Source: an uncultured Candidatus Saccharibacteria bacterium
Lineage (GTDB): Bacteria; Patescibacteriota; Minisyncoccia; Phycocordibacterales; UBA5272
Direction of reading: 5' to 3'
DNA: 64,000 bases
NCBI GenBank assembly: GCA_964457775.1
Contig: CAYWEW010000005.1
Span: forward strand, 5,398 to 69,397
The translations under genes were made by a program, and so were the position numbers. Shown piece after piece: positions 6,700 to 52,085 of the stretch. Under the pieces are notes generated by a model. It ran no database searches. It was not told where the DNA came from and worked only from the letters and a program-made list of their open reading frames with translations. Positions within the stretch are counted from its first letter, which is position 1. Every line of letters begins with the position of its first letter.

Positions 6700-7326
6700 A
6701 TGATGCAAATTACTACTTCGCCTAGAAAGGCAAAAGAAACCAAAAAAGATGGATTTATACCTGCTGTTTATTATGGAACACATGCAGCTTCTACTCCTAT
6801 TTTTGTTGATATGATTGAATTTACAAAGGTTTTATCATCAGCCGGTGAATCAAGTTCTGTAACTCTAAAAACTGAACATGGAAATGAAACAGCTATGATT
6901 CAAGATGTACAAGTTCACCCAGTTAAAGGCCAAGTTATACATGTTGATTTTTATGTTCTTGAAAAAGGTCAAAAAGTTCACGTTAAGACACCTATAGTAT
7001 TCGTTGGTGAGTCAGCTGCAGTAAAAGCAGGAGGAGTGCTTGTAAAAGTTTTACAAGAACTTTCTGTTGAAGGAGACTCAACAAAACTTCCTCATGAGTT
7101 TTCTGTTGATATTTCTGCACTCGTTGATTCAAAGAGTGTAATACATGTGAGTGATGTTAAGCTTCCAGTAGGTGTTGAACTTTATCACATTAATGAAACT
7201 GATGTGGTGGCATCAATTTCTGCTGCGCAAGAATTAACAGAAGATGTTCCTGTTGCTACAGACTTAAGTACGATTGAGGTGGAGGCTAAAGGTAAGAAAG
7301 AAACAGAAGAGGCACCTGCAGAATAA
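6700..7326 (+). CDS. rplY: Ribosomal protein L25 / general stress protein Ctc
   Basis: KDGFIPAVYYG motif and length. The track start at 6682 overlaps a TGTATAAT -10, so the start is more likely the ATG at 6700 or 6703 (leaderless). Confidence 0.8.
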   Translation: MMQITTSPRKAKETKKDGFIPAVYYGTHAASTPIFVDMIEFTKVLSSAGESSSVTLKTEHGNETAMIQDVQVHPVKGQVIHVDFYVLEKGQKVHVKTPIVFVGESAAVKAGGVLVKVLQELSVEGDSTKLPHEFSVDISALVDSKSVIHVSDVKLPVGVELYHINETDVVASISAAQELTEDVPVATDLSTIEVEAKGKKETEEAPAE

Positions 7327-13071: not shown

Positions 13072-13184
13072 TTAGTATTTTTTGATTGATGTATTCAGTA
13101 TTTAATAACATGACAATTAGAGTGTTTTGTGATAGAATAAATCCTATTGTTTTGGTAGTAAAAATAAATTATGCCGTGAGTAGA

Positions 13185-13247
13185 TCGAGAAGCTTGGCTT
13201 CGAAGATGTCAAAAATTAGCAATTTTTTAACCCGGTTGGTAGAATAT
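13185..13247 (+). repeat. Conserved hairpin element upstream of tRNA (copy a)
   Basis: cgagaagcttggcttcgaagatgtcaaaaattagcaattttttaacccggttgg; second copy at 51627..51680 with compensatory base changes in the stem. Confidence 0.55.
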
Positions 13248-13286
13248 TAAAACGTACATGGTCAGCAGGTAGTAGATAGTAAATAT

Positions 13287-13362
13287 GCCGCTTTAGCTCA
13301 GTTGGTAGAGCAACGGTTTTGTAAACCGTAGGTCCACAGTTCGAATCTGTGAAGCGGCTCCA
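13287..13362 (+). tRNA. tRNA-Thr (anticodon UGU)
   Basis: Acceptor GCCGCTT/AAGCGGC, D-arm GCTCAGTTGGTAGAGC, anticodon loop ttTGTaa, T-arm GGTCCACAGTTCGAATCTGTG, CCA encoded. Confidence 0.8.
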
Positions 13363-13421
13363 ATAATAAGCGGAGCTTATTATGGTGATGCTTCAGCAAG
13401 ACAACTGCTTGTCTTGCGACA

Positions 13422-13493
13422 GATTCTAATAGGGGTCGCGAGGTTTATATTTTGAGTTTACGAGGAATAGACCTTGTGACCGAATCTGACAAG
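13422..13493 (+). repeat. tRNA-trailer repeat module (GATTCNAATA-GGGGTCGCGA...GTGACC-GAATC)
   Basis: gattctaataggggtcgcga...cttgtgaccgaatctgacaag; related copies at 33894..33956 and on the minus strand at 50095..50180. Confidence 0.5.
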
Positions 13494-13514
13494 TTTTAGC
13501 CAATACTTCAATTT

Positions 13515-17144: not shown

Positions 17145-19496
17145 ATGAAATTCTCTAAATCATGGCTACAGGATTATATTGTTGAAAAACTTCCAGAAGA
17201 TGGAGTTATTGCTGATACTTTAAATAAAAAAGCATTTGAGGTTGAAGAGGTTATTACACTTTCCAATGATACAGTTTTTGATATTAAAGTTCTTCCAAAT
17301 CGTGCGCATGATGCACTTGGTCACCATGGTATGGCTTATGAACTTTGCTCTTGTTTTGGTTTTACATTTAAAAAAGACCCTCGAAATAAAGTTTTAGAAT
17401 TTACTGACAAACATATCGCATCACCAGCCGTTGTAATTGATGATGAAAAGTCATGTACTCGTTTCTTAAGCATGAGAATTGATAATGTGACAGTGGGTGA
17501 TAGCCCAGAGTGGTTGAAGAATAGATTAGAAGCAATCGGACAACGCAGTATTAATAATATTGTTGACGCAACCAATTATGTACAATTCGCACTCAATAAA
17601 CCAATGCACGCATATGATGTAAGAAGTGTTAAAGGATCACTTCGTGCGCGCTTTGCTAAAACTGGAGAAGCACTCACAACTCTTGATGGTAAAGAATTAA
17701 CTTTGAACGAGAAGACTCTTGTAATTTCTGATGATGAAAAGGTGCTTGGTCTAGCAGGAATAAAAGGGGGTAAATTTAGTGGAATACAACCCGACACTAA
17801 AAGTATTCTTCTTGAAAGTGCTAATTTTGAACCTACACTTATTCGCAAGACATCACAAAGTTATAATATTCACACTGATGCATCAAAGCGTTTTGAAAAC
17901 GGTATAGCAAACTCACTTTCAATTGAAGGGTTGTATATGACCGCTAATTTGATAAAGGAAATTTGTAGTGATGCTAAAGCGAGTGAACCAACAGATATTT
18001 ATCCTGAAAAGGATACAGCTTACTATGTCGGTGTTTCTCTTCTTGAGATAAATGAAATTCTTGGTACTTCTTACTCGGACGACGAGATTAAAAATACTCT
18101 CAATGGCATGTCACTTCCTTTTGAAATAGTTGTTCCAGAAACATATATAGAAGAAACATACAAAACATTAGTAGGGTCAGTATACAAAAACCCTTCAAGT
18201 ATGAGACGTGATGCACCACAAGCCTTTAGTTGTTCTTCACTCATTAGTTATCTATATAAAGGTGTATGGATGCCGAGTCTTTCCGTTGATAAATATGTTT
18301 TTTCAAAAAAGATAACAAAAGATGATTTAAAATTCGGTGACCTTATTTTTACTAATAGTGGGGAAGGAAATATTAGATATGAATCAGTAGAATTTTTGCG
18401 AGGCACAAAAGTACCTGCTGGGGTAGACCATGTTGCTATGTATTGTGGCGATGGAAAAGTTATTCATGCAACGAAAGTTCACGGTGTTGTAGTTATTGAA
18501 ACTCTCGAGGACTTCTCAATTCGTCGTACTATAGTTGGGTATGGAAGAGTAGCTGACAATTTGGATGAGGAAAGATACGTAGTGCGTGTTCCGTCTGTGC
18601 GTTTAGATTTAAGAATCAAGGAAGATTTGGCGGAAGAAATTGGACGTATTATTGGATATGAGAAACTTGTACCAACTTTGCCAAAACTTAATCGTGTCGG
18701 TATTCCACATAAACGTATGTATTATGAAAATAAAATTCGAGAGATTTTAATTTCAAAAGGATTTTCGGAAGTAATAACATACACTTTTGGAAATGAGGGG
18801 GAGGTAGAGATTGTAAAAGGTTTAGCTTATGATAAAGAAAAGTTGCGCAATAATTTGGGTAAGGGTTTGCTACAATCACTTTCCCTTAATATTTACAACG
18901 GACCAGTGCTTGGTCAAAAAATTATTAAGATTTTTGAAATTGGAAACGTGTTCGGAAAAGATTTGGAGGTTAGACACTTATCGCTTGCAATCGATGATGG
19001 CGCCAAGAAGAGTAGTTTTACGGAAGAAATAGATATGATTCTTGCAGAAATAAAAAGAACATTAAATATTAAAGAAATAGAATATCAAACAGTATCTACA
19101 AAACCTTATGTGATTGAAATTGATTTTGATACACTTATTTCAAATCTACCAGAATCATCAATATATGAAGCGCCTACGTTCACGTCTCTCCCTTTGGTTA
19201 ATTACAAACCAGTCTCTGCTTATCCGTTTATTACCCGTGATATTGCTATGTGGGTACCTGATACTGTCACATGGGAAGATATCAATTCTGTTTGTGCTGA
19301 AGTATCTAATCCTCTTGTTACTCGTATTGATATTTTTGATACGTTTTCAAAAGAAATAGAAGGTGTAAAAAAGACATCATACGCCTTTCGTTTAGTATTT
19401 CAAAGTTATGAAAAAACATTAACTGATGATGAAGTGAATATAATGATGGGGGATTATTATCAGGTTTTGAAAGATAGAGGGTACGAAATTAGATAA
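17145..19496 (+). CDS. pheT: Phenylalanine--tRNA ligase beta subunit with an inserted NlpC/P60-like module in the B5 domain
   Basis: B1 and B3/4 (VLPNRAHDALGHHGMAYEL), B5 (LLEINEILGTSYSDDEIKNTLNGMSLPFE ... RYVVRVPSVRLDLRIKEDLAEEIGRIIGYE), core and C-terminal FDX-like domain. A roughly 150-aa insertion at about nt 18147-18600 carries C-S-S-L and DHVAMYCGDGKVIHA motifs. Confidence 0.9.
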   Translation: MKFSKSWLQDYIVEKLPEDGVIADTLNKKAFEVEEVITLSNDTVFDIKVLPNRAHDALGHHGMAYELCSCFGFTFKKDPRNKVLEFTDKHIASPAVVIDDEKSCTRFLSMRIDNVTVGDSPEWLKNRLEAIGQRSINNIVDATNYVQFALNKPMHAYDVRSVKGSLRARFAKTGEALTTLDGKELTLNEKTLVISDDEKVLGLAGIKGGKFSGIQPDTKSILLESANFEPTLIRKTSQSYNIHTDASKRFENGIANSLSIEGLYMTANLIKEICSDAKASEPTDIYPEKDTAYYVGVSLLEINEILGTSYSDDEIKNTLNGMSLPFEIVVPETYIEETYKTLVGSVYKNPSSMRRDAPQAFSCSSLISYLYKGVWMPSLSVDKYVFSKKITKDDLKFGDLIFTNSGEGNIRYESVEFLRGTKVPAGVDHVAMYCGDGKVIHATKVHGVVVIETLEDFSIRRTIVGYGRVADNLDEERYVVRVPSVRLDLRIKEDLAEEIGRIIGYEKLVPTLPKLNRVGIPHKRMYYENKIREILISKGFSEVITYTFGNEGEVEIVKGLAYDKEKLRNNLGKGLLQSLSLNIYNGPVLGQKIIKIFEIGNVFGKDLEVRHLSLAIDDGAKKSSFTEEIDMILAEIKRTLNIKEIEYQTVSTKPYVIEIDFDTLISNLPESSIYEAPTFTSLPLVNYKPVSAYPFITRDIAMWVPDTVTWEDINSVCAEVSNPLVTRIDIFDTFSKEIEGVKKTSYAFRLVFQSYEKTLTDDEVNIMMGDYYQVLKDRGYEIR

Positions 19497-33421: not shown

Positions 33422-33646
33422 TTAATGATAAATAATATCACCCACTTCCTTCAGTGCTTTATTTTCATCTTTTTCAAAATCATCGATAAACTCTGGGTGG
33501 TCATTTATTATATTTCTAAAATCAGATGAGTGTTTTTCAATAAAAGAATCAATAGATTCTCCATGTAATTGTGCAAGTTTTATTTGCATCATATTTGCAA
33601 TAAGCACTGATTTGTTTTGAGTTGGTTGCATTTCAAAATTTTCCAT
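33422..33646 (-). CDS. Hypothetical small protein
   Basis: ORF only. Confidence 0.3.
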   Translation of the reverse strand: MENFEMQPTQNKSVLIANMMQIKLAQLHGESIDSFIEKHSSDFRNIINDHPEFIDDFEKDENKALKEVGDIIYH

Positions 33647-33727
33647 ACATTAAGTATCTCATAAATTAATGCGAATAATCAAAGTAAATCTATTGTGATA
33701 TAATTGCAAGGTGTTTATTAAATAAAT

Positions 33728-33815
33728 GGAGAGGTGGCAGAGCGGTTTAACGCACTACCTTGGAAAGGTAGCAACTGGGTAACCGGTTCGGGGGTTCGAA
33801 TCCCCCCCTCTCCGC
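33728..33815 (+). tRNA. tRNA-Ser (anticodon GGA), no encoded CCA
   Basis: Acceptor GGAGAGG/CCTCTCC, anticodon loop ttGGAaa, long variable arm, T-arm GGGGGTTCGAATCCCCC. Confidence 0.85.
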
Positions 33816-33857
33816 AAAATAAAAAAACTAAAGCTTTTGCCTTAGTTTTTTATTTTA

Positions 33858-34150
33858 CGGAGAGGGAGAAAGTGACCTGCGTCACTTTCATGGGGATTCG
33901 AATAGGGGTCGCGAATCTACTTCGAGCAAAGCGAGGCAGATTTGTGACCGAATCCCTCACCCCTCCGCTTTGAAAATAAATTAACTCACTTTTTAAGTGA
34001 GTTAATTTATTTTGCGGTGAGGGAGAAAACCAACCGCTTGGTTTTCGTGGGGATTCGAATAGGCGAATCAGCAGATTCGGTTATTGGAACTAGCGAAACC
34101 CATTCTGACGAGCTTGCGAGGAGGGGTTTTGTGACCGAATCCCCATACTC
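33858..34150 (+). repeat. Two tandem degenerate tRNA-Ser-like units separated by a perfect palindrome
   Basis: Unit A 33858-33968 and unit B 34015-34150 each start cgg(a/t)gagggagaaa plus a hairpin, contain ggggattcgaatagg ... ttttgtgaccgaatccc and end with ..cccctccg or ..ccccatactc. The palindrome is 33972-34014. Confidence 0.5.
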
Positions 34151-34502
34151 AAACCACACTTCAAGGTATACTAAACAAATGAAATCAATTGTAAAAAATC
34201 CTTACCTGGATGCATTGCTTAAGCTAATGCTCCTGTCCGCCATTATTCATATGTTTGTGTTGGTTATTTATTCTGTGTTGAATGGCAATATTTTCTATTT
34301 AAATTTCTTTAAAATTATAAACATCGATTTGTTTTTTCCTCAAATAGTTAATTTGGATTGTTACGGACTTTATTCATTTGTTATTACTATTTGGTTGTAT
34401 ATATTAATTTATTACATTTCAAATATTAAAAATAAAAAATAAGTTATTTAATATAATATTAGCTATACAACCTCCACAATTTAGTGTATTTTGTATATAG
34501 CT

Positions 34503-45580: not shown

Positions 45581-45624
45581 GAATTAAAAGAGCGACACCT
45601 TTCGGTGTCGCTCTTTTATCTTTT

Positions 45625-45960
45625 GTTCTATCTATAAGCCGAATTCTGTCCATGTGGTTACCCACATTGTGTAATCATGTATCTGGGCGATATTTTACAA
45701 TACCGCTCTAGCGACACTCTCATATTGCTATGAGCACGGTCTTGCACACACGTAAGGATTTAGCCGTTTCAATTTTATCTTTCGATAAACATATTCCCGA
45801 AGGAACCCTAGTCTTTCGACATTGGCGTCACTGCTCGCACCTCTATGATTGCTCACGACGGGTGTTACCCGCTACGATCACTAATTTAAAAGTAATGTGT
45901 TCGGACTTTCCTCTCTCGGTGGTAGTATTTCAACCACAAAGAGCGATTACCCAGTAGAAC
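45625..45960 (-). ncRNA. rnpB: RNase P RNA (bacterial type A-like, reduced)
   Basis: Minus strand reads GAGGAAAGTCCGAACAC (P4), GGGTAACACCCG, GGTGCGAGCAGTGACGCC and 3' ACAGAATTCGGCTTATAG (E. coli-like ACAGAACCCGGCTTATCG). P1 is GTTCTAC/ATAGAAC. A terminator hairpin 45587-45620 lies downstream. Confidence 0.75.
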
Positions 45961-46053
45961 AAAAAAATAATACAACATATTTTACAAAAAAGCAAGTATA
46001 GATACAATTCCACGTGCTTTTATCTGCATTTTTTGTTAGTATGGAGGGATATT

Positions 46054-50037: not shown

Positions 50038-50094
50038 ATCATAAAAATATTCTGAAAAACATACAGAAAGCTGTATGTTTTTTTGTTTTGCATT

Positions 50095-50180
50095 GTCGGT
50101 AAGAATTGGCCACGAAACTACTACACTTCGTTCGAAGTAGTTTCGCGACCCCGTTATTCGATTCCCACATAGAAGCCAAG
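50095..50180 (-). repeat. Palindromic repeat module (GGGAATCGAATAAC-GGGGTCGCGAAACTACTTCGAACGAAG...)
   Basis: Reverse complement matches the tRNA-trailer module (ggggattcgaataggggtcgcgaatctacttcgagcaaag). Contains a roughly 36-nt imperfect palindrome. Confidence 0.5.
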
Positions 50181-50333
50181 CAGTTGGCTTTTTCTTGGGT
50201 ATAACAAAAAAAGCTTTGCATATTTTTGTTGTGCACCCTCATGGTCTCGGAATTTTAGTAATTAGGCTCTGTAATGGTTTTTTGAAAGAAATTGGATAGT
50301 TAGATCTAACCCTCTCGGTCGGCTCATTAATTA

Positions 50334-51002
50334 TTATTTAATAAACTTAAAACTAGAAATTACTCTATTCAGAGTAGGGTCATTCGTTACACTAGTATCT
50401 TTGGGAGGAACTAATGATATTAGATACTCAACATTATTTTTTATTGTGCAATATTCCGTAAAACGAATACTAGAATTTGGTAAATCTTGAATTACATCTT
50501 GTTCTGTAAAATTAATACCATTAATAGATGTTTTGGTAAAAGATTTTCCACCCGCCTTAACACGAGAACAGTCCAGATTTTCGCCAGACATTATATTTAT
50601 CACAAATGAACCCTGAGAGTTTTCCTTTGAGTTAATGGGTTGAAATCTTATCGCATTATCATTTGGTCCGTACATATGTTCAGGTAATTTTGTTCCATCA
50701 ACATAATCTATCTGAAATCCATATTGAGGACTTGCATATGTTTTCCATTTTACATCTTGTGATTCAGTACTCTCAGTTATCACTGAATTTATTTGGCTAT
50801 TTTTTGAAGTGGTCAGTGTTGCTTGAGAATTTTGTACTAACGAAACATTATTAGTAACAGCTTGCTGAGTTACGATGGGTGATGTTTTTTTAAACCAGTG
50901 CCATGTTAATGGATTCCACCACGAAGCAAAAACTTGAGTTGTTAATCCAGTGGTAAGAATAAAAACAAAAGAGATTATTTTAATTTTTTTCATATACTCC
51001 AA
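50334..51002 (-). CDS. Secreted hypothetical protein
   Basis: Signal peptide MKKIKIISFVFILTTGLTTQVFA. Confidence 0.5.
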   Translation of the reverse strand: MEYMKKIKIISFVFILTTGLTTQVFASWWNPLTWHWFKKTSPIVTQQAVTNNVSLVQNSQATLTTSKNSQINSVITESTESQDVKWKTYASPQYGFQIDYVDGTKLPEHMYGPNDNAIRFQPINSKENSQGSFVINIMSGENLDCSRVKAGGKSFTKTSINGINFTEQDVIQDLPNSSIRFTEYCTIKNNVEYLISLVPPKDTSVTNDPTLNRVISSFKFIK

Positions 51003-51074
51003 TGATACCTTACTAACTGGTATTAAGAAAGTGATTTATGAGATTTAGGCCTCACGGTCTGTCTCACATGGTTG

Positions 51075-51612: not shown

Positions 51613-51632
51613 CATGCTTGGTTAGCTCGAGA
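51613..51632 (+). repeat. Duplicated 5' fragment of tRNA-Phe (acceptor plus D-arm)
   Basis: atgcttggttagctcgag vs the tRNA-Phe 5' end atgcttggatagctcag. Confidence 0.55.
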
Positions 51633-51680
51633 AGCTTGGCTTCGAGGATGTCAAAAGTTAGTAAACTTTTGACCCGGTTG
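51627..51680 (+). repeat. Conserved hairpin element upstream of tRNA (copy b)
   Basis: cgagaagcttggcttcgaggatgtcaaaagttagtaaacttttgacccggttg. Confidence 0.55.
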
Positions 51681-51760
51681 TGAATCAGCAGATTCATGGC
51701 TTGGCCAAAAATAGATTGTTAAAACGTGAATATATAATGTCGGTGGTATAATTAAAATAT

Positions 51761-51833
51761 GCTTGGATAGCTCAGTTGGTAGAGCGCTTCCCTGAAGAGG
51801 AATAGGTCCCCAGTTCGAGCCTGGGTCCAAGCA
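51761..51833 (+). tRNA. tRNA-Phe (anticodon GAA), no encoded CCA
   Basis: GCTTGGATAGCTCAGTTGGTAGAGC ... loop ctGAAga ... CCCAGTTCGAGCCTGGG TCCAAGC A. Extended -10 TGGTATAAT ends 9 nt upstream. Confidence 0.85.
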
Positions 51834-51837
51834 CAAA

Positions 51838-51885
51838 ATACAAAAAGCGATGTCACATGATATCGCTTTTTGTATTTTGTGCTTG
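51838..51885. terminator. Perfect palindrome after tRNA-Phe
   Basis: caaaatacaaaaagcgatgtcacatgatatcgctttttgtattttg. Confidence 0.55.
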
Positions 51886-52061
51886 GACAGCAAGACAGAT
51901 TACTGTCTTGCGGCCGGCTCGAACGAAAAACCGGTCCACGAATTTATTTCAAAAAATAGGGTTCAGTATTTTTTGAAATAAATTTGTCGGTTTTTCTCGG
52001 GGTCGAGGATAGGAGATTTTGTTTGAGTCGTTAGACGAAAAAGAAAATCCCTAGCGGTGAC

Positions 52062-52085
52062 CGAGCCTGGGTCCAAGCATTTTAA
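52062..52085 (+). repeat. Duplicated 3' fragment of tRNA-Phe (T-loop 3' half plus acceptor)
   Basis: ccgagcctgggtccaagca vs the tRNA 3' end ttcgagcctgggtccaagca. Confidence 0.6.

Follow-up and report, generated by a model that had tools for sequence, protein, structure and literature searches.

Structured repeat units matched to the 3' end of the adjoining tRNA gene in a Saccharibacteria contig and other Patescibacteria genomes

Introduction

The gene for tRNA-Ser(GGA) on this contig of an uncultured Candidatus Saccharibacteria bacterium is followed by two structured sequences that resemble parts of the tRNA itself, which raises the question of what these sequences are and how they are related to the gene beside them. 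The original prediction described them as degenerate tRNA-Ser-like units and proposed tRNA-derived retro- or SINE-like repeats, pseudo-tRNAs used as integration sites or a structured non-coding RNA. Here, the window denotes the whole stretch of DNA that was analysed (64,000 nucleotides, 64 kb), and positions are those of the window.

Results

The tRNA-Ser locus

The locus consists of an intact tRNA gene and two units, Ser-1 and Ser-2, each preceded by a palindromic spacer:

33728..33815, + strand: tRNA-Ser(GGA), called by ARAGORN (Rfam tRNA model, 53.5 bits)
33816..33858, + strand: spacer palindrome 1, AT-rich and terminator-like
33859..33968, + strand: unit Ser-1, from fold, covariance model and exact boxes
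33859-33866, + strand: Ser-1 antisense acceptor copy GGAGAGGG
33868-33889, + strand: Ser-1 P2 hairpin, CUGC loop at 33877-33880
33892-33906, + strand: Ser-1 box GGGGATTCGAATAGG, with the antisense T-loop/T-stem copy at 33892-33902 and the TAGG bulge at 33903-33906
33907-33949, + strand: Ser-1 P4 hairpin
33941-33956, + strand: Ser-1 box TTTGTGACCGAATCCC
33949-33968, + strand: Ser-1 CGA and sense copy of the tRNA-Ser 3' end (A1), its ...CCCCTCCG ending at 33967
33973..34013, + strand: spacer palindrome 2, a perfect stem of 19 bp closed by a 3-nt loop, with a U-tract (fold z = -9.1)
34016..~34154, + strand: unit Ser-2, from fold, covariance model and repeat comparison
34016-34023, + strand: Ser-2 antisense segment GGTGAGGG, complementary to CCCTCACC in the tail of unit Ser-1
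34025-34046, + strand: Ser-2 P2 hairpin, CCGC loop
34049-34063, + strand: Ser-2 box GGGGATTCGAATAGG, antisense T copy at 34049-34059
34064-34079, + strand: Ser-2 extra hairpin
~34090 to 34136, + strand: Ser-2 P4-like hairpin
34128-34143, + strand: Ser-2 box TTTGTGACCGAATCCC
34136-34154, + strand: Ser-2 CGA and degenerate tail
34179..34442, + strand: 87-aa ORF for a small hydrophobic protein, called as a gene in other assemblies; outside the element

The template copied in both Ser units is the final ~20 nt of the tRNA gene, TTCGAATCCCCCCCTCTCCGC (segment A0). The arms of spacer palindrome 1 reach into the 3' end of tRNA-Ser and the 5' end of unit Ser-1, giving an inverted repeat (33806-33826 and 33846-33866) that is 95% complementary, and the start of this palindrome recurs as an 86% copy in the left arm of palindrome 2. 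The latter, at first placed at 33972-34014 as a perfect palindrome of 43 nt, is actually 41 nt long, with arms of 19 nt. The antisense segment GGTGAGGG at the start of unit Ser-2 pairs with the tail of unit Ser-1 and not with the tail of its own unit.

Unit Ser-1 folds at -55.8 kcal/mol (z = -6.4) and unit Ser-2 at z = -4.8, with 0 of 200 shuffles as good in either case, and the folds of the opposite strand are weaker. The predicted fold of the Ser units is a three-way junction with the segments in the same order as in a tRNA. A covariance model derived from relatives scores the two units at 120.5 bits (E = 5e-39) and 58.1 bits, respectively. The two units share a 58-nt direct repeat of 79% identity, and both boxes are identical between them. 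The description of the units as tRNA-related, structured and repeated is supported.

Their classification as degenerate tRNA-Ser-like sequences or pseudo-tRNAs is not supported. What the 5' segments contain is the exact reverse complement of the tRNA-gene 3' strand instead of copies of the 5' strands, the units have no D arm and no anticodon arm, and they are called neither by ARAGORN nor by the Rfam tRNA model; a relaxed tRNA search of the kind originally suggested (permissive cmscan of 33600-34300) matched only 33728-33814. The T-arm that appeared to be split by an insert was also misread, since the 5' box reads as the tRNA T-loop and the 3' strand of the T-stem in reverse complement. In the Ser units this box resembles half of a T-arm because TTCGAA is palindromic; at tRNAs with other T-loops it is the complement, e.g., AGTCGAA for TTCGACT and GATCGAA for TTCGATC. 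The acceptor-like 3' strand ascribed to both units is found in unit Ser-1 (CCCCTCCG), whereas unit Ser-2 has only the degenerate CCCCATACTCAAACC. A retro- or SINE-like nature is not supported, given the lack of a reverse transcriptase in the window, of poly-A and of any copy away from tRNA flanks in the window or in the loci fetched from other genomes.

Two ORFs overlapping these structures had been judged probably spurious. This is correct for 33734..33973, which overlaps the tRNA gene, and applies to 34017..34442 in part: the first 54 codons, lying over unit Ser-2, are probably a false extension. In other assemblies the remaining 87-aa ORF is the one called, and its nucleotide sequence is 99-100% conserved, unlike that of the DNA immediately preceding it. 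This 87-aa ORF, which has no Pfam match, forms the downstream boundary of the hypervariable unit region. Unit Ser-2 lies directly 5' of an ABC-transporter operon.

Unit architecture and covariation

The units share the layout A - spacer hairpin - A' - hairpin - A, where A denotes the encoded 3'-terminal ~20 bp of the tRNA gene (T-loop CGA to ~2 nt beyond the discriminator) and A' is its exact reverse complement. A unit starts with A', the Watson-Crick antisense copy of the adjoining tRNA gene's 3' end, which a conserved CUGC-loop hairpin (P2) divides in two. It continues with an AAUAGG bulge and a GGUCGCGA/UUGUGACC hairpin of variable tip (P4), and ends with a CGA box followed by a decaying sense copy of the identical tRNA end. 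The conserved boxes are TAGGGGTCGCGA and TTGTGACCGA, the conserved P4 hairpin is GGTCGCGA...TTGTGACC preceded by the AATAGG bulge, and the junctions …TCGAA/TAGG and GTGAC/CGA are fixed. Segment A' includes the complement of nucleotides past the mature tRNA end and mirrors the encoded sequence, not the mature CCA end, and G.U positions of tRNA stems are replaced by Watson-Crick pairs in the unit (loci L007, L013 and L019).

The comparison of homologous loci, which had been suggested as a check, revealed strong base-pair covariation: 94.1% of cells were paired, compared with 75.8% in shuffles and 36-44% in slid controls, and double-change cells numbered 428 against 148 in shuffles. In the variable stems, G.U pairs were no commoner than A.C mismatches (~18 vs. 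16). Conservation extends to unpaired nucleotides (AG before P2, CGU after P2, the CUGC loop and AAUAGG), and the base of P4 contains a fixed G.U pair on the sense strand. The opposite strand was rejected as the source of a functional RNA, because its folds are weaker and the fixed G.U pairs would there become A.C mismatches. Decay affects each acceptor copy separately, while the antisense T box stays matched to the tRNA, and the acceptor-like helix is not conserved across the family. With TTCGA being universal, only ~5-7 nt of the antisense box are tRNA-specific; the identity of P2 is 0.63 for same-tRNA pairs and 0.63 for different-tRNA pairs. No k-turn, hammerhead or bulge-helix-bulge intron motif was seen by eye.

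Units at other tRNA genes

A search of the window with the covariance model yielded exactly five units of 110-200 bases, all of them at its four tRNA genes (two at Ser and one each at Thr, Arg and Phe). The additional units that the original prediction had advised looking for thus have the same architecture and lie 3' of the three remaining tRNAs:

13373..13509, + strand: Thr unit, 3' of tRNA-Thr (13287-13362), modules as in the Ser units
50080..50215, - strand: Arg-type unit, 859 nt downstream of tRNA-Arg(CCT) (51146-51074)
51880..52079, + strand: Phe unit, large, 3' of tRNA-Phe (51761-51834)

In the Thr unit (fold z = -7.0; covariance model 99.3 bits) the antisense box ACAGATTCTAA and the tail CGAATCTG match the T-arm of tRNA-Thr and the acceptor copies are decayed. 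The Arg-type unit (77.3 bits) contains GGGAATCGAA, complementary to the T-loop and T-stem of tRNA-Arg, from which it is parted by an inserted ORF (50334-50993); a partial copy of the tRNA-Arg 3' end lies at ~50245-50228. The Phe unit copies the tRNA-Phe 3' end exactly in both antisense and sense (TGCTTGGAC ... GACCGAGCCTGGGTCCAAGCA) and has the P2 hairpin and two extra hairpin modules; it folds at -93.5 kcal/mol (z = -9.8), and its covariance-model score of 30.5 bits reflects a partial match.

A motif scan of species-representative genomes gave ~64 loci from ~38 Patescibacteria (CPR) MAGs, a set whose selection by a strict motif biases frequencies upwards. In the 467 kb of fetched loci the covariance model detected 118 units, and 85 of the 121 tRNAs in this motif-selected set, representing 15 amino-acid types, have a unit directly downstream. 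For 103 units the locus includes an upstream tRNA on the same strand, and 86 of these begin no more than 60 nt after the tRNA end. The units are always located on the tRNA strand, immediately 3' of the gene; the downstream genes are unrelated between loci and the upstream tRNA is constant. Every copy with readable upstream context follows its cognate tRNA or a fragment of that tRNA's 3' end, and the window and fetched loci contained no free or off-target copies away from tRNA flanks. The notion of P4 as an independent mini-MITE was dismissed, since no solitary P4 occurred in 531 kb. A strict-motif scan of viral contigs gave no matches, and the same was true of metagenome scans for close relatives of the Ser locus and of the Thr locus.

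The longest common substring with the cognate tRNA is 11 for the antisense T box and 13 for the unit tail, compared with 5 for non-cognate tRNAs in both cases. An exact 10-mer from the last 16 nt of the tRNA recurs downstream in sense orientation at 53 of 120 tRNAs and in antisense orientation at 24 of 120 (controls <1%), and never upstream. Within the same anticodon family, the box fits the tRNA of its own genome better in 25 cases, equally in 32 and worse in 5, and A' fits the upstream tRNA better than the tail of its own unit in 49 of 54 units. The units associate exclusively with tRNA genes, and each is tailored to its own tRNA.

Turnover of units

The units form arrays and leave remnants. 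Covariance scores form a continuum between 122 and 20 bits, downstream remnants have the form '...GTGACCGA + tRNA end', and orthologous tRNAs free of units exist (Lys-CTT in L064 and L076). Locus L077 shows the arrangement of L064/L014 with one additional tRNA-proximal cassette bounded by copies of A, i.e., a filled versus an empty site. In four of five arrays the tail copies nearer to the tRNA are better preserved, the fifth being a tie. Identical recent copies within one genome were not found.

The interiors of units are replaced between near-identical strains, and their modules are common to several species. From the 87-aa ORF onwards L079 is 100% identical to the window (264 of 264 nt in the ORF), and L003 is 99.9% identical across 1942 nt beginning at this ORF, while leftwards of ~34160 (L079) or ~34125 (L003) a different unit interior takes the place of that of the window; the comparison is based on three short contigs beginning inside the repeat (L003, L079 and L002), for which an assembly error is unlikely. 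The unit modules of L079 match units in other species. Contigs L002, L003, L078 and L079 all begin or end within units, and look-ups of window proteins returned only short contigs terminating inside the tRNA or units.

Comparison with known classes and search for a partner enzyme

In the window, ARAGORN found only the four true tRNAs and no tmRNA, and Rfam 15 at gathering thresholds only RNase P and the four tRNAs; at E<=10, Rfam added only sub-threshold hairpin-like microRNA/sRNA matches. The original prediction had allowed for membership of a known non-coding RNA family, and none matched the units at Rfam 15 gathering thresholds. Identification as a T-box, a riboswitch, a Y-RNA-like RNA or an sRNA was rejected on the same ground. 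The permuted tmRNA model reached 17.6 bits (gathering score 47), with a match confined to the tRNA 3' end. Patescibacteria tRNA genes may carry group I introns in the anticodon loop (PMC13011429); this class was discarded, as the units lie 3' of intact tRNAs and give no Intron_gpI match.

Pfam searches of 49 window ORFs revealed no recombinase, transposase, HUH protein or reverse transcriptase, and no enzyme was seen consistently next to units in the fetched loci. A retron or retroelement was rejected, as none of these ORFs has an RT domain, and so was an integron attC site (no GTTRRRY core; no tyrosine recombinase in the window). As in MITE, REP and BOX repeats, there are many non-coding, hairpin-forming modular copies (5 in 64 kb and 118 in 467 kb) with shuffled modules, whereas dispersal to varied intergenic sites was not observed in readable contexts, nor a transposase among window ORFs. 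The direct repeat of the tRNA 3' end expected of an att remnant is present and encloses a non-coding hairpin cassette of 130-190 nt. Islands between a tRNA and a unit contain a large serine-recombinase-like ORF, a PemK/MazF-like ORF and a HerA-like ATPase, as assigned by eye from sequence motifs. They carry only a ~10-nt acceptor-end repeat before the spacer, so that the unit lies outside the island; integron-like ORF cargo between tRNA and unit was rejected for this reason.

Discussion

The best explanation of these results is a large family of palindromic cassettes, lineage-specific and uncatalogued, that occupies the tRNA 3' flanks of Patescibacteria and includes the Ser units. Tentatively, at a probability of about 0.45, we regard the units as repeat cassettes that are modular, specific to tRNA 3' ends and recombining at the DNA level; some at least would be co-transcribed as tRNA trailers. 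Such cassettes would be gained, lost and reshuffled at the DNA level, with incoming cassettes inserting beside the tRNA and duplicating segment A. The most economical route would be a recombination of incoming or ectopic DNA, with homology provided on the left by the conserved tRNA body and on the right by the tail copy of A; no dedicated enzyme was seen. Where tRNA and unit have no terminator between them, the 3' trailer of the tRNA transcript must include the unit, which would then fold on its sense strand and may have a role as RNA. Several points count against recombining cassettes. No recombinase, transposase, HUH protein or reverse transcriptase was detected in the window or consistently beside units, the absence of copies beyond tRNA flanks is atypical of MITE/REP-type repeats, and the initial gain of arms specific to each of ~15 or more tRNA types is left unexplained. 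Recombination using a right arm of 20 nt is inefficient. The conserved unpaired nucleotides, the fixed G.U of the P4 base and the selectively kept antisense T box fit a functional RNA.

A functional cis-encoded RNA, either within the primary transcript of the tRNA or as a small RNA of its own, is the main rival and a real possibility, albeit not one that we expect to prove right. The antisense box would base-pair with its own pre-tRNA at the T-loop and the 3' strand of the T-stem, and the tail copy would serve as an internal decoy. A protein or a ligand would be bound by P2, P4 and the AAUAGG bulge, and A-A'-A would form a switch for that tRNA, acting on its folding, its 3' processing (RNase Z) or its quality control. 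The constant strand and position of the units, the strong covariation with conserved loop and junction nucleotides, the sense-strand G.U with poorer folding of the opposite strand, and the antisense T box that keeps its match as acceptor copies decay all favour such an RNA. Moreover, the predicted MFE fold pairs the 3' half of the tRNA with A' in 13 of the 15 tRNA-unit pairs folded, units often have their own terminator after them, and in L014, L024 and L064, which have no terminator between tRNA and unit, co-transcription would be forced. At most loci, however, a terminator-like palindrome separates the two, and no promoter stands out. The units are also dispensable at orthologous tRNAs, often decayed and replaced between near-identical strains, A' copies the encoded sequence rather than the mature CCA end, and the variable stems show no wobble excess. 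We consider it improbable that the units are instead the non-coding part of a guide-directed insertion system with an enzyme encoded elsewhere, in which the antisense box would read the tRNA-gene 3' end by pairing, as RNA or as folded single-stranded DNA, and insertion would duplicate a ~20-bp target. The A-X-A layout with fixed junctions and a target-like duplication, the conserved hairpins with a variable tip, which resemble recombinase-bound folded sites, the better preservation of tRNA-nearer tail copies and the few tRNA-specific nucleotides of the box, which would make retargeting easy, point in this direction. Yet a candidate enzyme was not found, none of the genomes contained identical recent copies, the searches turned up no free or off-target copy and none in viral contigs, and islands at these tRNAs use another junction, in the acceptor 3' end. 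It also seems unlikely that the units are the guide-bearing non-coding part of an unknown programmable system pairing with each tRNA gene 3' end or pre-tRNA. In such a system, the antisense box would act as guide, with the tail copy as duplicated target or decoy, and either DNA would be inserted at tRNA genes without disrupting them or the maturation of single tRNAs would be switched on and off.

Direct repeats of tRNA 3' ends are a hallmark of integrase-type integration, and islands do sit between a tRNA and a unit. The units could accordingly be attachment-site scars, i.e., attR and an arm remaining after integrase-driven islands or prophages in tRNA genes were lost, but we judge this very improbable: the ~10-nt repeat of the islands precedes the spacer and leaves the unit outside, and a scar does not explain the exact antisense copy, the P2/P4 modules common to all tRNA types or the covariation. 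Fragments of tRNA genes provide a comparison for such scars (PMC9897764). The idea of decayed tandem tRNA duplicates with insertions, or of a leader or riboswitch of the downstream ABC-transporter operon, could draw on the tRNA-like segment order, the three-way-junction fold and the position of unit Ser-2 on the upstream side of the operon. It is hardly credible, being largely refuted by 5' segments that are complements and not copies, by the missing D and anticodon arms and by downstream genes that vary by locus while the upstream tRNA is the constant neighbour; moreover, there is no tRNA, T-box or riboswitch match, and every tRNA type has the same modules.

Among known systems, the partial tRNA-gene repeats left by integrative elements, which comprise att sites at tRNA 3' ends and arrays of tRNA fragments beside genomic islands, share with the units a direct repeat of the tRNA 3' end downstream of an intact tRNA, the possible formation of arrays and islands at the same tRNAs. 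The units differ in their non-coding insert of ~130-190 nt with an exact antisense copy of the tRNA end, in two hairpin modules common to all tRNA types, and in that the islands here use another junction. REP/BIME, pneumococcal BOX and MITE repeats are likewise non-coding and hairpin-forming, with interchangeable sub-modules, intact-to-decayed copies and strain-variable content, and dozens per genome would be expected. Unlike these, the units occur only at tRNA flanks, have arms tailored to the neighbour tRNA, and are without a seen RAYT/IS transposase, a generic terminal inverted repeat or a short target-site duplication. Integron attC and the folded attP of CTX phage resemble the units in an imperfect palindrome with conserved inner boxes, one-strand unpaired bases and a variable tip, in strand-specific reading and in cassette-like arrays growing at one fixed site. 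In contrast, the units have no GTTRRRY core or integron integrase, are mostly ORF-free, and would have every tRNA gene as a fixed site. A retroelement primer-binding site is the complement of the 3'-terminal 18 nt of a tRNA. The units similarly comprise the complement of the ~20 3'-terminal nt of a specific tRNA from near position 58, but it is that of the encoded and not the CCA-bearing end, it is split by a hairpin, and there is no RT and no element body. As in tRNA-like processing signals and mimics such as plant mitochondrial t-elements, mascRNA and bacterial YrlA (PMC4201824), the Ser-1 and Phe units can stack an acceptor-like on a T-stem-like helix with one side hairpin. In the units, however, the acceptor-like helix is not conserved, the T-loop is absent (paired and interrupted by P4), no Rfam match exists, and the tailoring is to the neighbour tRNA and not generic. 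Full-text literature searches yielded no description of such tRNA-end hairpin units, and Rfam release 15 has no family for them. We know of no repeat family whose arms are an exact antisense and a sense copy of the adjoining tRNA.

If this account is true, the majority of tRNA genes across much of the candidate phyla radiation would have a companion element. The units break short-read assemblies, produce spurious ORF calls and mark a hypervariable spot in otherwise identical strains, which may be of use for strain typing. An explanation of the tailoring, whether by recombination, templated copying or selection, would reveal either a new level of tRNA-specific RNA regulation or a new DNA-shuffling route, by which small genomes would acquire and shuffle DNA at their tRNA genes.

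Units at the tRNA genes of the window

The original prediction placed two units behind tRNA-Ser(GGA), and this layout is present in the sequence, with the boxes GGGGATTCGAATAGG and TTTGTGACCGAATCCC each occurring exactly twice at the places named; the spacer between the units is a perfect palindrome, as described, with a length of 41 nt and not 43 nt. The second box has a weak third match, which pointed to tRNA-Thr, and reading of the flanks then gave the same architecture at all four tRNAs of the window, the outer segments of each unit (an antisense box and a sense tail) tracking the adjoining tRNA and not tRNA-Ser. A scan of the 64-kb window with a covariance model built from units of related genomes found exactly five units and no other matches; the Phe unit matches only partially because of inserted hairpins.

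Units of the window, with covariance-model scores, and their setting at tRNA-Ser
33728-33815: tRNA-Ser(GGA)
Between tRNA-Ser(GGA) and unit 1: AT-rich terminator-like palindrome
33859-33968: unit 1 (Ser-1), 120.5 bits
33973-34013: perfect palindrome, 41 nt, between units 1 and 2
34016 to about 34154: unit 2 (Ser-2), 58.1 bits
Thr unit: 99.3 bits; antisense box ACAGATTCTAA, sense tail CGAATCTG
Arg unit (minus strand): 77.3 bits; antisense box GGGAATCGAA, sense tail degenerate
Phe unit: 30.5 bits, partial match; antisense box TGCTTGGAC, sense tail GACCGAGCCTGGGTCCAAGCA

The two Ser units share a 58-nt direct repeat. Both adopt one fold, in which an outer helix is combined with a hairpin of 9 bp and a 4-nt loop and with a second, long hairpin that is interrupted, and they do so far better than shuffled sequence (z = -6.4 for unit 1 and -4.8 for unit 2). 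Since GGTGAGGG of unit 2 complements CCCTCACC in the tail of unit 1, and not the tail of unit 2 itself, the period of the repeat is tRNA-end copy, spacer palindrome, antisense copy with hairpin P2, hairpin P4. The spacer palindrome, tRNA end and antisense copy together form one long inverted repeat (I2). A 141-aa ORF running through unit 2 is a product of gene callers. In independent short-read assemblies of the window organism, contigs end within tRNA-Ser or its units (contig ends of L002, L003, L078, L079, and L080); these repeats limit assembly.

The window is core chromosome, encoding ribosomal proteins, release factor, EF-Ts, PheRS, ThrRS, GyrB, SecA, Mur ligases, and RNase P RNA, and a Pfam search of 49 of its ORFs revealed no reverse transcriptase, transposase or recombinase. 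In the PheRS beta subunit (17145-19496), residues 358-457, located between the B3_4 and B5 domains, form an NlpC/P60 peptidase-like domain. The class A RNase P RNA (45619-45962, minus strand) scores only 107 bits versus a gathering score of 100, which would fit a reduced CPR-type RNA.

Structure of the units and their relation to the tRNA

Parts of a unit in the alignment, 5' to 3'
1: acceptor 3' strand of the tRNA and 2 nt more, in reverse complement
2: AG
3: hairpin P2, 9-10 bp, loop CUGC
4: CGU
5: T-stem 3' strand and T-loop in reverse complement, with terminal TCGAA
6: unpaired TAGG(G)
7: hairpin P4, whose conserved base GGUCGCGA/UUGUGACC includes G.U pairs
8: CGA, often with 1-2 nt added after it
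9: T-stem 3' strand and acceptor 3' strand copied in sense, continued for about 2 nt

The tip of P4 is of a few interchangeable types or bears extra hairpins. Covariance analysis across homologous loci, which the original prediction had called for, supports P2, P3 (antisense T box paired with the tail) and P4: 94.1% of their cells are paired, compared with 75.8% after shuffling and 36-44% with the partners slid, while double changes number 428 versus 148 expected and covariation occurs at all nine pairs of P2. The invariance of eight pairs in the P4 base comes from the search pattern, which fixed them; in units outside this pattern the first G.U is kept and the second becomes A-U or G-C. A mini-hairpin motif, GCGAAGC or C-GAA-G, recurs in spacers, P4 loops, and some tail copies (L028, L066), for instance as AAGCGAAGC in the relatives' loci L025, L057, L076, and L077, as CACGAAGTGAG in L014 and L064, and at 33925-33935 of the window. 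The oligonucleotide d(GCGAAGC) forms an unusually stable DNA mini-hairpin, and this hints at single-stranded DNA structure.

The fit of a unit to its own tRNA is evident from the longest common substring, which for cognate versus other tRNAs is 11 versus 5 in the antisense T box and 13 versus 5 in the tail; of 57 units, only 12 retain an intact acceptor antisense copy. Exact Watson-Crick complementarity links the antisense segments to the encoded tRNA 3' strand, and at G.U sites of the tRNA stems the unit bears the complement of the 3' strand and not a copy of the 5' strand. Hence, the units are not decayed tRNA copies, and the earlier reading of them as degenerate tRNA-Ser-like units is not supported. 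The antisense copy extends to the complement of 2 nt past the discriminator, and not of CCA. In 49 of 54 cases the antisense box fits the upstream tRNA better than the tail of its own unit, and in 13 of 15 pairs folded, the 3' half of the tRNA is joined to the antisense copy in the minimum-free-energy structure, and its 5' acceptor strand to the tail.

A relaxed Infernal search, as suggested with the prediction, left the units outside every Rfam family, permissive thresholds included. ARAGORN calls no tRNA or tmRNA in them. Group I introns in anticodon loops have been reported in tRNA genes of Patescibacteria (PMC13011429), and the units are not of this kind.

Occurrence in other genomes

Species-representative genomes were scanned once with TAGGGGTCGCGA-N15-45-TGTGACCGA, a pattern for which about eight chance matches are expected, and 72 loci resulted. 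About 64 of them lie in about 38 Patescibacteria/CPR MAGs deposited as Paceibacterota, Nomurabacteria, Parcubacteria, 'Saccharibacteria' or Gracilibacteria, and at least six of the remainder are GC-rich proteobacterial contigs without the architecture. In the CPR loci (467 kb) the covariance model found 118 units. The start of the unit is at most 60 nt from the tRNA end in 86 of the 103 that have a same-strand upstream tRNA in the locus, and several apparent orphans adjoin tRNA 3' fragments or tRNAs that the locus edge truncates. Units accompany 85 of 121 tRNAs of the fetched loci and 15 of 16 amino-acid types, His being the sole type without one (0 of 2 tRNAs), although these frequencies are biased upwards because each locus was picked for having one unit.

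Larger, divergent relatives, most of them missed or weakly scored by the model, are present in L064 (3784-3960), L077 (1773-2030), L021 (5150-5366, minus strand), and the window (51880-52079). In some, the antisense copy spans the entire T-arm and acceptor end without interruption, and others have added hairpin modules, e.g., GAATCAGCAGATTC and CGAAAAACCGG...CCGGTTTTTC.

Arrays, remnants and strain variation

Covariance scores form a continuum between 122 and 20 bits, intact units are followed by fragments of the type '...GTGACCGA + tRNA end', and the unit is absent at some orthologous tRNAs. P2 similarity is 0.63 both for the same tRNA in different genomes and for different tRNAs. In arrays of at least two units, the tail copy nearer the tRNA is better preserved in four of five cases, with one tie. 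Locus L077 has the arrangement of L064 and L014 plus one extra, different cassette beside tRNA-Cys with copies of the tRNA end on its flanks, that is, a filled-versus-empty pair with an A-X-A layout (A being the last ~20 bp of the tRNA gene).

Unit interiors are also replaced between strains. Contig L079 is identical to the window over ORF 34179-34442 (264/264) and then beyond it (91/91), and L003 shows 99.9% identity across 1942 nt, whereas upstream of about 34160 (L079) or about 34125 (L003) the unit interior is different; pieces of the L079 interior match units of other species. This comparison, made on short contigs whose starts fall inside the repeat, is the most telling sign of unit turnover.

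Islands and 5'-side elements

Between some tRNAs and their units lie islands of 0.9-5.6 kb. Their ORFs (positions noted: L073 5561-7072; L037 1904-2293; L022 6111-7865; L014 4099-6068; L067 1495-3473) resemble, by eye and by sequence motifs, a large serine recombinase, a PemK/MazF-type toxin, and a HerA-like ATPase. The islands bear a short acceptor-end repeat of their own before the spacer, which marks them as a separate, ordinary phenomenon. The putative recombinase ORF overlaps the tRNA-Ser 3' end, and a conserved two-gene cassette (404 aa and 252 aa) is found at tRNA-Leu(TAA) in two genomes. The window has a case of this phenomenon: tRNA-Arg is separated from its unit by an insertion of ~850 bp (50228-51073, minus strand), with the tRNA at one edge and, at the other, part of the tRNA 3' end repeated (GAGGGTGCACAAC at about 50245), so that it resembles a small island that has integrated in the tRNA 3' end. 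Its one ORF (50334-50993; 219 aa from the first ATG or 222 aa from TTG at 51002) has a signal-peptide-like N-terminus and zero matches in Pfam.

A second element family is located on the 5' side of tRNA genes (window 13173-13250 and 51616-51700; L068 ~7190-7290; L052, L056, L064, L077, L006, and L021) and consists of a direct copy of the first 7-13 nt of the tRNA fused to a conserved module (TCGAGAAGCTTGGCTTCGARGATGTCAAAA.TTAG.AA..TTTT.ACCCGGTTG). A sense copy of the first 13 nt occurs upstream of 10 of 123 tRNAs versus 0.4% in controls. Duplication in L068 also takes in the ~30 nt that precede the tRNA, and the 5'-side block of L052 is tandemly repeated.

Possible origin of the units

We consider the units, with a probability of about 0.45, to be palindromic cassettes of modular build whose accumulation and turnover at tRNA 3' ends take place at the DNA level. 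A cassette whose left flank is a highly conserved tRNA gene and whose right flank is a copy of the last ~20 nt of this tRNA could enter any cognate tRNA locus, we infer by recombination, and its entry would recreate the observed A-X-A layout with the tRNA undamaged.

The DNA-level reading gives no account of how each tRNA type acquired its first arms, of the precise antisense T box, or of the conserved unpaired motifs, and therefore two rivals are kept. The units may be functional trailer RNAs, each able to pair with its own pre-tRNA and using the tail as a decoy; the precise T box and the conserved unpaired motifs speak for this model, which we regard as possible but rather unlikely. The other rival, a guide-directed insertion system with an enzyme encoded elsewhere, we judge improbable. 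That the units are scars of attachment sites is very doubtful. Pseudo-tRNAs or riboswitches are largely excluded, with hardly any probability left; the constant neighbour of a unit is the upstream tRNA, so the unit is not the leader of a downstream operon.

The nearest known kinds to the cassettes are interspersed structured repeats (REP, BOX, MITE), tRNA fragments at att sites, and folded recombination sites (attC). None of them is known to have arms fitted to the adjoining tRNA in both orientations, as the units do.
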